Source: a virus (lineage: Duplodnaviria; Caudoviricetes). From it: a stretch of DNA of 33,137 nt. The stretch covers positions 1 to 33,137 of the IMG/VR virus record IMGVR_UViG_3300049009_000318, one strand, 5' to 3'. This document shows, one piece after another, positions 1,173 to 18,720 of the stretch (the first letter of the stretch is position 1; every line of letters begins with the position of its first letter). A program made the translations under genes and the position numbers. The notes under the pieces were generated by a model. That model was not told the DNA's origin. It searched no databases and saw only the letters and a list, made by a program, of their open reading frames with translations.

Positions 1173-1389
1173 AGTCTTCCTTCAAAATCTCTTTGTTGAG
1201 CTCCAGGGCAATGCGGCGCACCCCTTTGAGCAGCTCATGCAGGTTGTCAACGGTCTCCATCTCCCGCTCAAGCGCGTCCTTGAGTAGTGCGATCTGGTGG
1301 TGCAGGTTGCGCAGCTCACCGTTGGCCTCTTGGGTGTCGCGGATGATCCCGTCGTCATCCCGGAATAGCTTGACGTAGCTCACATGCAT
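1153..1389 (-). CDS. Hypothetical coiled-coil protein (~78 aa)
   Basis: Start re-called at MHVSYVKLFRDDDG, which overlaps the upstream stop. Heptad-rich C-terminus. Confidence 0.6.
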   Translation of the reverse strand: MHVSYVKLFRDDDGIIRDTQEANGELRNLHHQIALLKDALEREMETVDNLHELLKGVRRIALELNKEILKEDYAKTKE

Positions 1390-1829
1390 CGCTTGCTCCA
1401 TTTCCAGTGGTTCCAGGTGGTCACGTCGCAGTCGAGCTCCCACAGATGCACCCCGGTGATCTTCTGCTGGTGACGGCGCAGCTTGCGCATGCCCTTGAGG
1501 TAGATCTGCCTGGCTCGCTCTTGTGTGCAGCCGAGCTCATGGCCAGCCTCTTTGAGCGTCAGCTCGTCATGCACGATCAGCTTGATGGCCAGCATCTCGC
1601 GGTCTGTCAGCGGTATTTCAGCCAGAATCTTGAACAACAGATCTTTGGCCTCAACCAGATCCATGTCGTCCTGAAGCTGCCATGACCACTTGTGCCGGGG
1701 CAGCTCGGGCAGCTCTTCATCCCGGCTGTACCAAATCTTTTTGACCTCGCTGGGCAGGGTCTCGGTCATGAGCTGGCCGTAGTAGGGCGAGCCACGACCG
1801 TTGCGGTTTACTGTGTTTTTGCCAGTCAT
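1380..1829 (-). CDS. Sigma-70 region 4 domain protein
   Basis: LTDREMLAIKLIVHDELTLKEAGHELGCTQERARQIYLKGMRKLR matches the sigma70 region 4 HTH (LT.RE...TL.E.G....T.ER.RQI...A.RKLR). No region 2 evident. Confidence 0.85.
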   Translation of the reverse strand: MTGKNTVNRNGRGSPYYGQLMTETLPSEVKKIWYSRDEELPELPRHKWSWQLQDDMDLVEAKDLLFKILAEIPLTDREMLAIKLIVHDELTLKEAGHELGCTQERARQIYLKGMRKLRRHQQKITGVHLWELDCDVTTWNHWKWSKRCM

Positions 1830-5330: not shown

Positions 5331-5625
5331 CCTTGCCGCTGGCCGCGACATGCGCGAGCGCCAGCTCGACATCTTTGAGCAGCGAGATCACCAGTTCCTG
5401 GAGCGCTGCCGGGCACTAGCCGTGTTGATCTGCAAGCAACAGGGGCAGGTCTCAATCAACGACATCAGGCAGTTCATCGAGGTGCCGCCGGGTGTCCACC
5501 CATCTGTCCTGGGCGCGGTCTTCCGCACCAAGCAGTTCAAGCGGGTTGGCTTCATCGAGGCCGCCCACCCAGAAGCTCACGCCCGAGTGGTGCGTGTGTA
5601 TTCCCTCGCCACCAACAAGGAGTGA
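5317..5625 (+). CDS. Hypothetical protein (102 aa), possible winged helix
   Basis: AAGGAG RBS; VSINDIRQFI..P....PSVLGAVF pattern. Confidence 0.7.
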   Translation: MLAPNLAAGRDMRERQLDIFEQRDHQFLERCRALAVLICKQQGQVSINDIRQFIEVPPGVHPSVLGAVFRTKQFKRVGFIEAAHPEAHARVVRVYSLATNKE

Positions 5626-5629
5626 AAAA

Positions 5630-6589
5630 ATGGCCGGAAAATTAACCGACGACAAAGAGATGAGCGCCAGCCGACTGCCTGGCCTGATGGGGTTCAGCAA
5701 GTACAGCAGCCCTAATGATGAGCTGCAGTTTTCGATCAACGCCATCGACGGCAAGGAGCGCCCTGACATTGGCAACGAAGCCATGGGCTGGGGCAACACC
5801 TTGGAGCCGGTGATCCTGACCGAGGCTGCCAAGCGGCTTGGCATCGAGCAGTTCGACACCCAGATCGGGCAGGCCTACACGCACCGCAGCTTCGCGCTGT
5901 CGTGCAGCCTGGATGGGGTTGGGTATGGCATTGGCCAGGAGATCTTCACCGACCCGGACAAGGGTCTGTATGTGGTTGGCCAGGACTCCATTGTGCTTGC
6001 TGGCCCCGGTGTGCTGGAGGCCAAGCTCACCAAGGCCATGCCCGAAGAGACCCCGCACCTGGCCCGTGGCCCCATCCAACTGCAGGGCCAGATGCTGGTC
6101 ACCGGCCACAGGTGGGGCGCGGTTTGCGTGCTCTACCAGGGTATCGAGCTGCGGGTGTTTCTGTTCGCACCCCACCATGACACCCAGAAGGAGATCGTCA
6201 AGGCGGTGCTGACCTTTGAGCACAAGCTGCAGACCTACCGGGAGAGCGGGGCCATCGACTGGTATCCACCTGCGAGCAGCAAGGAGCTGGATCGGATCTA
6301 CCCCATGGTGGCCACCAAGGAAGAGGTCGAGCTCGATGTCAGCGTGGCCGACCTGGCCGCCGGCATTGTGGCCAACAAGGCCGCGATCAGGGCAGCCGAG
6401 GCCAGCATCGAGAGCGCGGAGAAGCTGATCAAGACGCAGTTGGGCCAGGCCGAGCGGGGCAGGGCAGGGCAGTACCTCATCAACTGGCCCATGCGCAACC
6501 ACAAAGCCCAAGCGGAGCGTTTGATCCCTGCCAAGGAACCCTACTCTGTGCGCCAGAGCACGCTGTCGATCAAGGAGCTGCAGCCATGA
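5630..6589 (+). CDS. YqaJ/lambda-exonuclease family 5'-3' exonuclease
   Basis: SASRLPGLMG.SKY, WGNTLEP, CSLDG, LEAK and QLQGQM motifs. AAGGAG RBS before ATG 5630. Confidence 0.88.
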   Translation: MAGKLTDDKEMSASRLPGLMGFSKYSSPNDELQFSINAIDGKERPDIGNEAMGWGNTLEPVILTEAAKRLGIEQFDTQIGQAYTHRSFALSCSLDGVGYGIGQEIFTDPDKGLYVVGQDSIVLAGPGVLEAKLTKAMPEETPHLARGPIQLQGQMLVTGHRWGAVCVLYQGIELRVFLFAPHHDTQKEIVKAVLTFEHKLQTYRESGAIDWYPPASSKELDRIYPMVATKEEVELDVSVADLAAGIVANKAAIRAAEASIESAEKLIKTQLGQAERGRAGQYLINWPMRNHKAQAERLIPAKEPYSVRQSTLSIKELQP

Positions 6590-6771
6590 ACCTTCCCGAC
6601 AAGCCTGCCATCAGGCATGCCTATGAGCAGGCCGTTGTGGCCCTGCTAAACGCAACAAACGCAACCGAGGAAGATGCCGAGGTCTTCGTCGACGCGATGG
6701 CCGACCTCATCTTCACCACCATGCAAACCTACCTATCCGAGAAAGACATCAATGCAATTGACCACCACTAA
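6586..6771 (+). CDS. Hypothetical protein (61 aa)
   Basis: AAGGAG RBS; ATGA overlap. Confidence 0.65.
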   Translation: MNLPDKPAIRHAYEQAVVALLNATNATEEDAEVFVDAMADLIFTTMQTYLSEKDINAIDHH

Positions 6772-7810
6772 CCGGGGCTTCGCCCCAGCCACCCTCACCG
6801 AGGCGATCCAGTTCTCCGACATGCTGGCCAGCTCCAGCATGGTGCCCAAGGCCTACCAGGGCAAGCCCCAGGACATCCTGGTCTGCGTGCAGTGGGGCTA
6901 TGAGATGGGCCTGGCACCCATGCAGGCGCTGCAAAACATCGCCGTGATCAACGGCAAGCCCAGCGTCTACGGTGACGCGGCCATGGCCCTGGTGCAGGCC
7001 AGCTCGGTCTGTGAGGATGTCGAGGAATACTTTGAAGGCGAGGGCACAACCAACCCGGTGGCGGTCTGCGTGGCCAAGCGCCGTGGCCGCAAGCCGGTGA
7101 CCGCCAAGTTCAGCGTCGAGGATGCCAAGCGAGCTGGCCTATGGAACAAGCAGGGGCCATGGACGGCCTACCCCAAGCGCATGATGCAGATGCGAGCTCG
7201 CGGGTTTGCCCTGCGCGATGCCTTCCCGGACGTGCTGAAGGGTCTGATCACCGCCGAGGAGGCCCAAGACTACCCTGACGAAGCCAAGCCCAGGCCGGTG
7301 GCCAAGCCAGCCAACCCGCTGGACATGGTGGCCAAGCCTGCGCCGGTGGCCATCGAGAATGAGATCACCAACCCGGCAGCCATTGAGGCCGCGTTCGCTG
7401 ACACGGTCGAGCCTGATCCTGTGCCGGTCGAGGTGCTGGCCGTGATCCCGCACGCGGAGGCAGAGCCCGTCGAGGTCGAGCATGTCGAGCTGCAGCCACT
7501 GGTCGAGCGCGTGCCTGGTGAAGATGACGACCTGGGTGAAGAGATCCCCATCGGGTTTGAATTGAAGGTGCCGGGCAAGCACAAGCCCTACTCAATCCAC
7601 CAGACGTTGGATGAGTGGCAAGATGCCTACGAAGAGCTGGCCGACCAGGTTGCCAAGGCTGGAAAGCGACCACCCAGGGAGCGCATGACAGCGCTCAAGG
7701 AGCTCAAGCAGATTAATGAGGAGACCATCCAGCGGGTGGATACGCTCAAGCGGCTGCGCCACACAAGCGCATATCAGCGCCGACTCAATGCGCTGGGAGC
7801 TGCGCAGTAA
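6752..7810 (+). CDS. recT: RecT/Redbeta-like single-strand annealing protein
   Basis: VPKAYQGKP...G.EMGL.PMQALQNIAVINGKPS...W..YPKRM...RA..FALRDAFPDVLKGL...EE. Adjacent to the YqaJ exonuclease. Start re-called at ATG 6752. Confidence 0.85.
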   Translation: MQLTTTNRGFAPATLTEAIQFSDMLASSSMVPKAYQGKPQDILVCVQWGYEMGLAPMQALQNIAVINGKPSVYGDAAMALVQASSVCEDVEEYFEGEGTTNPVAVCVAKRRGRKPVTAKFSVEDAKRAGLWNKQGPWTAYPKRMMQMRARGFALRDAFPDVLKGLITAEEAQDYPDEAKPRPVAKPANPLDMVAKPAPVAIENEITNPAAIEAAFADTVEPDPVPVEVLAVIPHAEAEPVEVEHVELQPLVERVPGEDDDLGEEIPIGFELKVPGKHKPYSIHQTLDEWQDAYEELADQVAKAGKRPPRERMTALKELKQINEETIQRVDTLKRLRHTSAYQRRLNALGAAQ

Positions 7811-13861: not shown

Positions 13862-16738
13862 TTAGTCAGGTTTGTAATAGAGGCCGTTGGCTTTGCGCAG
13901 CTCTTTGAGCTCATCGATCTTGGCTTGCAAAGTCGGGGTCTCTACCTTCAGTTGTTGCTTGGCAGCGTCCATGAATTTGGAATGCACGCGCTGCACGGTC
14001 TTTTGCTGATCGTCCAGCGAAAGCAGGTCAAAGCCTGGGGTCTGCATGATGTTCAAGAGCTCTTGCTTGGCTGGCAGCTCCTTGCCGTAGATGGTCAGCA
14101 GCCGGTTGTATTGGGTTGCATCCATCTCGATACCGTCGATCTTGCGCTCGGGCATGCCAATGGGTGAGCCCATGCGCACCAGCATGTCATCCACCTCAGA
14201 GAACTGCTGCGGTGTCACGCGGGTGGGCAGCACCAGCTCGTAGGCTGCGCCGGTGCCTGACTTGGTCGGCTCGCCCCACAGGTTGAGCGCTTCAGGCAGG
14301 TCGGCGCTGAAGTAGGGCAGCCGTGACTTGTACTTGTTGAAGGCCTCCACAAAGCCACGCACACCCATGGGCAGCTCTGGGCTGGCGCGGGTGTCCCGGT
14401 TGGTGGGATCGGACAAGCGCTCGATGCCAGCCAGCAGCGAGCTGTAGGCACCGGCAGGCGAGCCGCCAATGACAAAGCCACCAAACTGCTTGACCAGGCC
14501 GTCCACAATTTTCTTGCCATCCACCTGGCCCTGCTGGTTGGTTCCGATCAGCTTGGCCACATCGGCCACGCCTTGCAGGTATGGCTGCTCTTTGAGGTAT
14601 TCGTACAAGCCATAGGTGCCGCCCAGGAAGACCTCTTCGATCTTGCTGGCATCGGTCTCATGCTTGGCGTACTCGGCATAGTCGGCAGCGATGGCCATCA
14701 GCGCAGAGACCGGCTCCATGCCGCTGTAGCTGTAGTACTTGTCGCCCACTTTGATGGAGTAGGGCTGCCAGCCGTCGCGGATTAGCGCATCGCGGTCGGC
14801 CTTGCGCTCTGGGCCGCGCCCGGTGATGTTGCCCTCGGCGGCCAAGGCGGCAAAGGTGGCCAGAACGGCAGATCCCAGCGTCACCTTGGCCAATGCCATG
14901 TCTCTGAACACACCACCCTTGGCGATCTCCTCGCGCCACTGTGATGACAGCGGGGCGAACGGTGTGCGCTCAATGACCTGCAAACCAATGTTGGCCGGGG
15001 TCTTGAAGAACGGCACCACAACCTTGAGGGCAGGGTGGTTGAAGGTCTGCTGCAGACTTTTGAGCGCTGGCGGCAGCTCGGCAGTGAAGGTGCCCTTCTG
15101 GGCAAACAGCACAGCGGCCTCGTCCAGGTCGCGGGGCGGGTTCTGGAACAGGCTGACTGCCTCGGCCTCGGCCTTGGCCAGCGCGTCAGCTTCAGGCATG
15201 CCAGAGTCAAGCGCCTCACGGTAGACCGACTTGCTGCGCCGGGTGATCTGGGTGTTGAGCTCCATGCGGTAGAGCACGCCCTTGAAGAACTCGTCCTCAG
15301 ACATGAGCATTCTGCCGGGCAGGGTGACCGCTGTGCCGTAGTAGTCGATGGCCTTGCCCAGCCACTTGTCCTGCTCAATGCCAAAAGCAGCAGAGCTGAT
15401 GGATGGCAGGGTGGTGCCACGCTGCGCCTCGATCTTGCTCATCAGGTCGTTGGGCTGGTTCTTCTTGAACGCAGTGCTGGCCAGATCAAAGCCTTCGACC
15501 AGCCCGTTGCGCAGCGACTGAATCATGGTCAGCGCTTCGTCGTAGCCGATCTTCTCAGCCTCGCTGCCGGGAATCAGCGCCTTCCAAGAGCGCACACCGG
15601 GTGGCAGCACATTGCCATAGAAAGAGGCGATCACCCGCTCGGGGATTTGGTACAGGCCAAACATGGTGTTGGACACAATGTTCTTGGCGTGCGACACGGG
15701 GCTCGACAGCAACCCGTTGATGTAGGTAGTGAACCAGACATCCTTCACACCAGACATCATGGATTTTTCGACCAGGGCATTCTTGGCCGCACGCGACTCC
15801 AGCGTCAGGTAGGACTTGGCCATGTCCGACAGGGCGGCATCGCCACCGTACTCATCAATGACCTGGCGCACCACGGCTGCGTTGCCATCGCGGGGAATGC
15901 GGAACACGGCCAGCGATCTGGCGGTCTCGGTCTGGATACCCTTGACACCGCGCTGGATCAGGCCGTGGAAGGCGATCTGCTGGCGCAGCACCAGCTTGTC
16001 CACATCGGTGGCATTGCCGCTGTCTACCAGCTTGAACAGGCGATCCAGCTCGTTGGCGCTGGACTCCAGCACCTCCAGCGCTTTGTAGGTCTCGACCGCG
16101 TTGGCCATCATCTTGTTGTCGCTGCCAATCAGCCGGGACAGGAAGCCCTCGCTGATGCCAGACTCAGCGGCCTTGGCCTTGATCTCATCGAAGGTCACCG
16201 CCTTGGTCTTGATGTTCAGCGCGTCAGCCACGCCGCCCACAATGGCTGCGGCATCCTCGGTCTGGTAGCGCGACAGGTTGAACGGCTCAACCGGCACACC
16301 GGCTGCGGCCTCGGCAGTGGTAGGGCTGGGCTTGCCAATGTTGGGAGCTACAGCTTGCCGGGCCTTGACGGCAGCGCCGACCGTGTTTGTCAGCACTTGG
16401 TCAGCCTCTGGGATCAGCTTGAACCGGCCAGCCTTGGCTGCATCTGGCAGCTCGCCTGGCAGGGCACGGGCGGCATCTGGCACCAGATTGCGCTCGGCCT
16501 TGGTGGCTTGCCGGGTGATCAGCTTGCGCAGTGCGGCATCGACTGGGCCAGCAACCTGGATGCCTTCCTCCATGCTGGGGGTGCCGGTCTCGGCATCTAG
16601 CTGGGGCTCAGCCATCATGTCCTGGGCTGCGCCAGGCATGGGCTCCAGGGGGATCTGATCGGCGGGGGTGCTGGGCGCAGCGCTCGGCAGGATCTGACCT
16701 AGTCGTTGTTCAAGGGGTCGTTGTTCAATGGCCATCAT
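13862..16738 (-). CDS. Large internal virion (ejection) protein, 958 aa
   Basis: Sits in the T7 gp16 slot before the tail fibre. Helical, with PFFKTPANI and GWQPYSIKVG motifs typical of large phage ejection/polyvalent proteins. Confidence 0.75.
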   Translation of the reverse strand: MMAIEQRPLEQRLGQILPSAAPSTPADQIPLEPMPGAAQDMMAEPQLDAETGTPSMEEGIQVAGPVDAALRKLITRQATKAERNLVPDAARALPGELPDAAKAGRFKLIPEADQVLTNTVGAAVKARQAVAPNIGKPSPTTAEAAAGVPVEPFNLSRYQTEDAAAIVGGVADALNIKTKAVTFDEIKAKAAESGISEGFLSRLIGSDNKMMANAVETYKALEVLESSANELDRLFKLVDSGNATDVDKLVLRQQIAFHGLIQRGVKGIQTETARSLAVFRIPRDGNAAVVRQVIDEYGGDAALSDMAKSYLTLESRAAKNALVEKSMMSGVKDVWFTTYINGLLSSPVSHAKNIVSNTMFGLYQIPERVIASFYGNVLPPGVRSWKALIPGSEAEKIGYDEALTMIQSLRNGLVEGFDLASTAFKKNQPNDLMSKIEAQRGTTLPSISSAAFGIEQDKWLGKAIDYYGTAVTLPGRMLMSEDEFFKGVLYRMELNTQITRRSKSVYREALDSGMPEADALAKAEAEAVSLFQNPPRDLDEAAVLFAQKGTFTAELPPALKSLQQTFNHPALKVVVPFFKTPANIGLQVIERTPFAPLSSQWREEIAKGGVFRDMALAKVTLGSAVLATFAALAAEGNITGRGPERKADRDALIRDGWQPYSIKVGDKYYSYSGMEPVSALMAIAADYAEYAKHETDASKIEEVFLGGTYGLYEYLKEQPYLQGVADVAKLIGTNQQGQVDGKKIVDGLVKQFGGFVIGGSPAGAYSSLLAGIERLSDPTNRDTRASPELPMGVRGFVEAFNKYKSRLPYFSADLPEALNLWGEPTKSGTGAAYELVLPTRVTPQQFSEVDDMLVRMGSPIGMPERKIDGIEMDATQYNRLLTIYGKELPAKQELLNIMQTPGFDLLSLDDQQKTVQRVHSKFMDAAKQQLKVETPTLQAKIDELKELRKANGLYYKPD

Positions 16739-18720
16739 TCAGCTCCAGACTGCAGAGCTTGACGGCCCTGTTTTAGGCGTTTCGGATTTCCGGTGGCAGG
16801 CTGGATTCCTCCAGCTCCGGTGGCACCCCTTCCGGGTATGCCAGCCCCAGGTAGTTCTCCCGTGTTACCGGCAGGTTGAACTGCTTGAGCAGATCCAGGA
16901 CGTAGTCCGGCTCCTTCCCACTCTGGAGGTCTGATTCCACCGGCATTTCTGAAGACTTCATTGCGTGCCTCCTCAAGGGACATTTTGCCTTTGCGATATT
17001 GTAACCAGATGCCATCGATCTGATCGACATTCTTGGCTTGGCTCTTGAAGGTGTCAGGATACAAGCCGCGCACTGCTTCCCAGGTGATCGATTGCATCTC
17101 GCGGGGCAGGATCCCGCGCTCTTGGGCAGCTCGGCGGTAGGCCTCGGCGTAGATGCCGTAGGTGCCCTGCACGCCCGTGATTGAGCTGTTCTTTGGGCCG
17201 ACCTCGCCCTTCATATTTGATCCAAAATTGTGTGCCACTTCACGGCTGTTGCCAGACAGTGGGCGCAGCAGGCCAGCAGCCACCGCATGGGTGTCGATGG
17301 TCACTGGGCCTGCCGGATCATTGGGCGCATAGATGTTGCTGTAGAAGTTGCGCACCTTGTGCTGTTGGCCAAGGTTGGTGCTGATCGTTTCAATGCGCGG
17401 GTCTTCCAAGATGACGATGGCTTTGCCGATCTCATTGAGCGATCCCCAGCCGGTTTGTGTTGGGGTCTTGCCGTCTTGGTTCATGCGCACGCCAACGAAG
17501 TCACCCTCTGGGCTGACGATCTGGTGCTCGCGTGGGTTCTTTGCTTGGTCGTAGGTTCGCAGCCACATGGCTTTGAGGCCTGGCTCCTTGACCTCGGCCA
17601 GGGTCTTGCCCCGAATGGCATTGACCATCGGCGCGTATTTGGGGTCGCCAAAGATGGTCTTGGCAATCACGTCCATGCTGGAATCCCAGCGGGTGGATTG
17701 CTGCTTGGTTGCAATGTCGAGGACGCGCTGGCCCAGCGACACATTCATGAACCAGTCCTTCTGCGGCGAGAGTACGGCCAACACGCCAGAAACCGCCTGA
17801 TCAGGCACACCGTAGTCCACAGAGAAACGGTCGGTGATGTTGCGTGCGCCGTCATACCAGAGCTTGCTGCGCTGGCGCGTAGCTTCTGGCACTTGATCGT
17901 GCAGAAACAGCAGGTTGTTCTTCACCTCGGTGATGAAGTCTTCTGCTTGTTTGTCAGGGTTGCGAGCCTTGCTGGCAAAGTTGGGGTACTGACGAATCAG
18001 CCCCATGTTGTGCGCAAAGGCTTCTGGGTCTTGCTTGACGGCCTGGAGGTCGATCACCAGCCTGCTGGTCAGCGGATCCTCGGTTTTCTTCACTGCGGTC
18101 GGCAGGCGAGTGCTGACCAAGTTGGGGCCGGGCGGGGCTCCAGTTGGGATCCCGTCAACAGCTTGGATACTCAGGCCAACAGGCAAATTCTTTGGAAGTA
18201 CTTTTGCAGCCTTCACAGTGCCGACAGCGCCAGGGATCATGCCCAGCGCAGCGCCGCCAGCTTGCAGAGCAGCGGCGCCATAGTTGCCTTGCTTGGCAGA
18301 CTCAACAGCCTCGCCACCCATGATGGCGGCTTCCTCTGTCTGCATGGTGGTGCCCAGGAACGGCACAAAGTCAGCCAAGCCGATGTTCAATGGCAGGTTG
18401 CTACTGCCGCCACCAATCAGCGTCTGAGCGTTTTGACGGGCCTTGTAACGATCCATGCCCAAGCCTTCAAAGCTGGACTGCAACAGGCCAGCCAGACGCT
18501 CGCGCACGGTCGGATCGTAGGGCTTGATGGTGTCAGGGTAGCGGCCACTGTAGGCTTGATCAGGAAGACCACGCGACCCAGCCTCGGCCAGCAAGATGTC
18601 TCCCGGCTGCTGGCCTGGTGCCATCTCTTGAGGTGCTGCCATGTCGGCAACCGGTGCGTCTGGGAATTGGACAGCGGTCAAGGCCGACAGGTACTTGTCC
18701 TCGATTTGGCTGTAGGCCAT
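16735..18720 (-). CDS. Putative internal virion protein with HhH-GPD glycosylase-like domain (661 aa)
   Basis: Lies among the ejection genes. Motifs WYDGA, AVLSPQKDWFMNV, LGQQHKVRNFYSNI, PAGPVTIDTHA and Y.EAYRRAA..RGILPREMQSITW. Confidence 0.65.
   Translation of the reverse strand: MAYSQIEDKYLSALTAVQFPDAPVADMAAPQEMAPGQQPGDILLAEAGSRGLPDQAYSGRYPDTIKPYDPTVRERLAGLLQSSFEGLGMDRYKARQNAQTLIGGGSSNLPLNIGLADFVPFLGTTMQTEEAAIMGGEAVESAKQGNYGAAALQAGGAALGMIPGAVGTVKAAKVLPKNLPVGLSIQAVDGIPTGAPPGPNLVSTRLPTAVKKTEDPLTSRLVIDLQAVKQDPEAFAHNMGLIRQYPNFASKARNPDKQAEDFITEVKNNLLFLHDQVPEATRQRSKLWYDGARNITDRFSVDYGVPDQAVSGVLAVLSPQKDWFMNVSLGQRVLDIATKQQSTRWDSSMDVIAKTIFGDPKYAPMVNAIRGKTLAEVKEPGLKAMWLRTYDQAKNPREHQIVSPEGDFVGVRMNQDGKTPTQTGWGSLNEIGKAIVILEDPRIETISTNLGQQHKVRNFYSNIYAPNDPAGPVTIDTHAVAAGLLRPLSGNSREVAHNFGSNMKGEVGPKNSSITGVQGTYGIYAEAYRRAAQERGILPREMQSITWEAVRGLYPDTFKSQAKNVDQIDGIWLQYRKGKMSLEEARNEVFRNAGGIRPPEWEGAGLRPGSAQAVQPAGNTGELPGAGIPGRGATGAGGIQPATGNPKRLKQGRQALQSGAE
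16773..16961 (-). CDS. Nested small acidic protein (62 aa) in an alternative frame
   Basis: GAGGAGG 6 nt before ATG 16961; MKSSEMPVESDLQSGKEPDYVLDLLKQFNLPVTRENYLGLAYPEGVPPELEESSLPPEIRNA. The overlapping host frame is low-complexity here. Confidence 0.7.
   Translation of the reverse strand: MKSSEMPVESDLQSGKEPDYVLDLLKQFNLPVTRENYLGLAYPEGVPPELEESSLPPEIRNA

Follow-up and report, generated by a model that had tools for sequence, protein, structure and literature searches.

A phage cassette pairing a predicted HhH-type DNA glycosylase domain with an overprinted, putatively inhibitory partner gene

A small gene is nested in the gene for a putative internal virion protein

We analyzed a 33-kb virus record (33,137 nucleotides); this whole stretch is the window to which all positions below refer. 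Its minus strand carries terminase, T7-like portal, scaffold, capsid, tail-tube, internal virion, and tail-fibre genes. A gene encoding a 661-aa protein (16735..18720, minus strand; the "host gene") is flanked on one side by the tail-tube genes and on the other by the gene for a conserved 958-aa internal virion protein (phrog_6651; 13862..16738, minus strand), which served as the constant flank for the slot survey below. The 661-aa protein comprises a variable N-terminal region, a DUF7178 domain (residues 201-600; 16921..18120, minus strand), and a 62-aa tail rich in glycine, proline, and alanine; Pfam and PHROG scans matched it to PF23802 (E = 2e-24) and phrog_3842. Judged by gene position alone, it is likely an ejected internal virion protein that is packaged and injected.

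A first-pass annotation of this DNA had drawn attention to a 62-codon ORF (16961-16773) wholly within the host gene (18720-16735), on the same strand and in the +1 frame. We refer to its product as partner family A, the conserved core of which spans residues 18-60. The reported Shine-Dalgarno-like GAGGAGG is present 6 nt upstream of the nested ATG (16974-16968), within host codons for L-E-E-A. The product is acidic, as had been stated (12 D/E versus 5 K/R), and G/P/A make up 50% of the final 62 residues of the host protein. Over the nested gene, the host frame stays open as a read-through tail (16735..16920, minus strand) whose stop codon overlaps the start of the next gene (ATGA). The one positional claim that needs correction is that the ORF starts just after the enzyme domain: its ATG falls on host residue 587, some 13 codons before the conserved end of the domain (GGI.PP.W) is reached.

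Elsewhere in the window, RecE-like (YqaJ) and RecT-like genes (5492-7810, plus strand) could supply recombination that exchanges cassettes. The phage is a small T7-like podophage with a sigma-70 region 4 protein (1380-1829, minus strand), and no phage RNA polymerase was found among the 26 ORFs scanned.

The DUF7178 domain is predicted to be an HhH-type glycosylase

The domain scores 86.9 bits against a Pfam cut-off of 27 for DUF7178, a family of 2770 clusters at 50% identity. Its structure model (pLDDT 96.5) contains the two-lobed helical fold of EndoIII, OGG, and AlkA that marks the HhH-GPD superfamily, and all of the top 22 structural matches are HhH glycosylases, with OGG2 the best; the best Z score, 9.5, is modest for a helical protein, and the Foldseek E value is just 0.056. 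The nearest folds are those of OGG2 (3n0u), AGOG (1xqo/1xqp), and the queuine-salvage enzyme DUF2419. Identity to these and to EndoIII (2abk) is 6-14% with no sequence-level PDB match, and the domain differs from those glycosylases in being phage-encoded and about 400 aa long with insertions. A PDB sequence search returned nothing useful for the domain, nor for allele C described below.

HhH-GPD enzymes have a catalytic lysine after the HhH motif and an aspartate about 18-21 residues later. In DUF7178, K455 in HKVRNF (17356..17358, minus strand) and D476 in TIDTH (17293..17295, minus strand) are invariant in 184/184 sequences and also in all 30 loci that lack an adjacent family-A gene (see below); by analogy with HhH-GPD chemistry, we take these to be the putative catalytic residues. 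A near-invariant motif, S318-P319-Q320 (17761..17769, minus strand), resembles the LSAQ motif of EndoIII. The HhH-type fold proposed in the first-pass annotation is supported by modeling, and we predict that DUF7178 is an HhH-type DNA glycosylase/AP-lyase.

The nested frame is conserved and under selection

We examined 80 closely related viral loci (domain identity, 61-98%). The nested ORF is complete in 77 of these; a contig end cuts it in 2, and the sequence is absent in 1. It is nested in 68 loci and forms a separate gene in 9 that derive from another phage backbone. The synonymous T that creates the nested ATG is kept in 86/92 distinct loci, compared with a 43% background at other Asn/Asp codons. 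Given this retention and the completeness of the ORF, we rejected a chance ORF; the 62-codon ORF is a real gene. Across the wider family, a loosely defined RBS plus start was found in 175 of 188 family-A loci, a count made without a chance control. The loci behind these comparisons are related, so the counts are not independent events. Searches with the small protein gave no usable match in the ESM Atlas and none in Pfam or PHROG.

Substitution patterns in 36 distinct gap-free sequences separate the two frames. For codons 18-62, pN/pS comes to 0.33 when read in the nested frame, against 1.96 for the host frame and 1.43 for the third. At codons 2-14, the host frame is the constrained one (0.32, versus 0.95 for the nested frame); because the ATG precedes the conserved domain end by about 13 codons, these first codons are under host-frame selection, and the switch to nested-frame selection comes later. 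At the level of sequence comparison, these data show that the nested gene is under protein-level selection.

An alternative is that the +1 frame is not a separate gene: programmed frameshifting could lead into it as a second C-terminus of the host protein, or it could simply reflect sequence composition. Because the RBS lies over host codons that are themselves conserved, the host protein could account for some of its conservation. This explanation does not account for the ATG-creating T or the low pN/pS in the nested frame, nor for the orphan copies and the 49 loci in which the small gene stands separately past the host stop, and we regard it as very improbable.

We also considered the host frame over the nested gene. 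When the nested gene was recoded synonymously, the host frame remained open in just 13% of trials, and it is open in 68/68 nested close loci. (Stop-avoidance counts of 0/659 and 0/666 are partly true by the definition of "nested.") The host stop abuts the next start (at -4, -1, or 0) in 67 of these 68 loci, the other ending at a contig edge. Comparison of these loci shows the host frame to be maintained, either to reach the start of the next gene or to continue into further domains. Since it stays open, a partner can adjoin the domain without breaking the polyprotein. Obligatory read-through was rejected, as in one locus (L179) the host stop falls inside the small gene. In three loci with a host tail 163 aa longer (L015, L016, and L020), an additional domain of roughly 100 aa has been inserted, in frame, downstream of the nested gene, and there, too, the host stop abuts the next gene.

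Family A usually adjoins the domain

Our collection of 442 loci (74 of them retrieved using the small protein as query) includes 432 with the C-terminal end of the domain, of which 218 are distinct and have enough downstream sequence. A family-A gene directly follows the domain in 188 of the 218, nested or free-standing, as judged with a profile iterated on the same loci and with two weak matches (L411 and L417). The gene is nested near the host gene end in 73, nested mid-gene in 57, separate in 49, and partly overlapping in 9. In the mid-gene cases, the host frame runs more than 40 codons beyond, often more than 800; in the GenBank phage LS06-2018-MD07, for example, the family-A gene is nested in a 3109-codon ORF. 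Family A follows the domain in several phage backbones, and in the phage loci examined it lay beside the domain in 74/74.

No family-A gene adjoins the domain in the remaining 30 loci, all of which retain K455 and D476. Five such records contain no family-A gene anywhere, in a search that recovered 4/4 known positives. In about 10 of the 30, a nested gene that is displaced or of a different kind lies further along: in L123, insertion of a domain of some 150 aa that looks ART-like by eye has shifted the family-A gene to 461 nt past the domain end, and in nine, other recurring nested +1 genes occur 600-740 nt further, past the next domain. About six loci have plausible divergent +1 frames by eye, and the others show nothing. 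These observations suggest that the enzyme can be kept without its family-A partner, and we rejected obligatory linkage. The earlier description of an inhibitor "hard-linked" to its enzyme captures the adjacency in 188/218 loci and overstates it for the 30/218 in which no adjacent partner is present.

Sister phages exchange the domain and nested gene together

We used the downstream 958-aa gene as an anchor to survey this genomic slot, obtaining 80 loci, 61 with a usable upstream gene. These 61 contain eight alleles. Five alleles account for 55 of the 61, each with its own unrelated nested +1 gene, which is present in every case (A, 19/19; B, 17/17; C, 12/12, with a GTG start; D, 5/5; F, 2/2). 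With the exception of L600, which has an extra C-terminal insert, the nested genes of all five end 35-38 nt before the host stop. Profile comparison found no cross-matches among the five partner families (L600 was left out of the family-A profile). The other sister alleles carry PBECR5 (four) and ART-PolyVal (two), and no RBS-led nested ORF was found in these six. The flanks and N-terminus are constant: a phage with allele B (L443) shares the first 49 residues of the host protein with the window (65%) and the downstream gene (87%). The slot thus has the constant N-terminus and flanks and the variable C-terminal effector that characterize polymorphic toxins.

By profile comparison, allele B is distantly homologous to the enzyme, and the motifs of the two align (probability 82%, E = 1e-5); its small gene is nested in 28/28 loci, with a pN/pS of 0.35 in the nested frame versus 1.79 in the host frame. 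No homology support was obtained for alleles C, D, F, and E by this method, in which profiles were shallow. ESM features give a lead from allele C to DUF7178 (29/30 matches), and alleles D and F resemble the enzyme by eye only, with no family support. In allele B, a further domain without annotation separates the distant DUF7178 domain from the nested gene (L443:914-3703, residues ~640-860), so that the B partner could belong to either domain; this extra domain had no match among the tails of other loci.

These comparisons show that where the enzyme allele is replaced, the nested gene is replaced by an unrelated one, in agreement with the proposal that the two move as one cassette. Because sister phages swap both together, the small protein is likely the antidote of the enzyme. 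The partner had also been likened to the acidic DNA mimic Ugi. We regard this likeness as weak. Family-A proteins are acidic, with a median net charge of -5 and negative values in 175/188, but representatives of three sister-allele partners have net charges of +3, +4, and 0, and we rejected DNA mimicry as a general mechanism.

Partners also occur without the enzyme and fused to one another

Seven bacterial genomes contain a family-A gene without an intact enzyme. Three of them keep only the last 40-65 codons of the domain, including the RBS and start (two were found via that stub), and the other four have no domain match; these genomes are mostly metagenome-assembled and may be incomplete. Orphans were found in 1 of 401 genomes of one order and in 5 of 301 genomes of one family, the latter count including the centre genome. 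Five of the seven lie near a tyrosine integrase or IS21 element. In an integrase/AlpA element, a Cas3 HD-domain gene (L439:6161-6814) lies about 2 kb from the orphan partner.

Partner families are also joined to each other. A database search with family A yielded 141 proteins, 37 of which combine two or three partner families within a single ORF (B-A, 13; F-A, 11; A-C, 6; B-A-C, 6; F-C-A, 1). Four fused proteins belong to one 90% cluster; some could conceivably be assembly artefacts, although the fusions come from several sources. Searches of viral contigs (the best 80 of 93), plasmids, and the surveyed loci did not reveal the genomic setting of the fusions; junction patterns gave 0 matches in viral contigs, and a search of 401 genomes of one family, made with no positive control, found none. 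By eye, a small nested ORF about 3044 nt upstream of the domain end in L424 looks like the N-terminal portion of one fused protein (P0286), which suggests a further partner family.

The combination of allele-specific, orphan, and fused partners leads us to favor an inhibitor role, and the small partner is probably an inhibitor of the enzyme domain. We considered whether it could be a domain-specific chaperone, loading adaptor, or activating subunit needed for folding, packaging, or targeting of the enzyme. Any cognate binding partner could show such strict adjacency and allele specificity, and the conserved partner residues are hydrophobic or proline. However, such a protein would have no obvious use as an orphan in genomes without the enzyme or in proteins that join the partners of mutually exclusive alleles, and intact enzymes exist without it; a chaperone or activator is in our estimation unlikely. 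The orphans, which show retention without the enzyme, would also suit an independent effector with a different target that merely hitch-hikes with the domain. That the small gene is seen in phages only beside the domain, that it stays downstream in L123 despite the domain inserted between, and that each allele has a different partner all argue against this idea, to which we attach scarcely any weight.

The enzyme itself could be protective, repairing or unmarking the incoming phage genome, with the partner merely a timing regulator. Its nearest folds are repair or salvage enzymes, intact copies occur without a partner, and the injected DNA-protecting proteins DarA and DarB are described in PMC5512222. 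Against this, the exchange of divergent versions at one slot and the existence of orphan and fused partners point to conflict rather than housekeeping, and we consider a protective role improbable.

A proposed model of a putatively injected enzyme and its probable antidote

In the model we favor, a predicted glycosylase, probably injected, and a conserved, overprinted +1-frame gene together form a phage cassette that can be swapped as a unit, and the product of the small gene would bind and inhibit the enzyme domain. The predicted HhH-type DNA glycosylase/AP-lyase would be carried in the virion, injected, and then remove a base from host or rival-phage DNA. The target would most likely be a guanine derivative, since the nearest folds are OGG2, AGOG, and the queuine-salvage enzyme. 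Co-expressed late, the partner would keep the enzyme off replicating phage DNA and be left out of the virion. Bacteria or other mobile elements may gain protection by capturing partners, either as orphans or joined in multi-partner fusions. The overall pattern is typical, by analogy, of toxin-immunity systems, and the first-pass reading as a whole is partly supported.

A broader proposal, which we put forward tentatively, is that this locus exemplifies a hidden polymorphic effector-immunity system of injected base-excising enzymes with antidotes overprinted in linkers. This system would extend to other polyvalent-protein domains, with bacteria or rival elements gathering antidotes into orphan and multi-antidote proteins to defend against injected glycosylases.

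Relation to known systems

Ugi and p56 are likewise small phage proteins directed against a glycosylase. Both inhibit uracil-DNA glycosylase, and their target is a host UDG, not the phage's own enzyme. In lambda, Rz1 is a same-strand +1 gene nested in Rz, and it is a lipoprotein spanin subunit at a fixed locus; it is not an exchangeable partner, unlike the nested partner here.

The arrangement resembles polymorphic toxin-immunity systems, including phage MuF toxins (PMC3482391, PMC12226406). In both, a common N-terminus is combined with a C-terminal enzymatic domain that is exchanged, a small cognate gene comes directly after it, and partners also occur as orphans or in fused multi-partner proteins. 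What sets the present arrangement apart is the position of the partner, which is overprinted in frame +1 within the effector ORF and may even lie mid-gene. The 661-aa protein showed no MuF domain, the Pfam and PHROG scans giving DUF7178 and phrog_3842 alone. In the portion of PMC3482391 available, "glycosylase" appears once, in the background section.

Similarity to polyvalent proteins (PMC5512222) is seen in the PBECR5 and ART-PolyVal carried by sister alleles, and in domain relatives that lie in proteins of 2-4 kaa with InPase, ART-PolyVal, LPD22, DUF3293, and SLT; this latter combination applies to relatives, and the protein in the window has one recognized domain. The available main text of that paper contains neither "glycosylase" nor "overlap" and uses "nested" solely for a hairpin structure. 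The antiviral glycosylases Dag and Brig1 (10.1101/2025.10.29.685425) similarly repurpose HhH glycosylase folds for conflict. They are host defences against modified phage DNA, whereas the enzyme here is phage-encoded with a linked partner; the term "phage-encoded" is absent from the available text of that report. In the open-access literature searched, DUF7178 is unmentioned, and we found no description of this glycosylase/nested-partner system.

The locus adds a predicted enzyme fold, an allele-specific swap, and orphan and fused partners, and the system is real, widespread, and mechanistically testable, a variant of effector-immunity organization. DUF7178, a large unannotated phage family, gains a fold and a testable function, and our results suggest that phages may use glycosylases offensively. 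If orphans and fusions protect cells, they would represent a novel form of anti-phage defence. With its five allele/partner pairs at one slot, this 33-kb phage offers a ready matrix for cognate versus non-cognate tests.

Small genes nested in polyvalent-protein linkers are easily missed by annotation, and the model offers a concrete role for them. Other recurring nested +1 genes occur in our collection. One, with an HP(L/F)KGG.IIFG-like core, lies 680-740 nt past the domain end in L290, L312, L391, and L403 (also L413 and L434), following the next host domain in loci without family A. A second family (LRASG.TVTV) follows a different host domain about 620 nt past the domain end in L288, L406, and L433. 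A third (F.H.P) is found 1.4-2.6 kb upstream of the domain end in L269, L283, L299, and L305; in three of these four loci, it follows a domain ending in E.FAQ, which we take to be possibly zincin-like.
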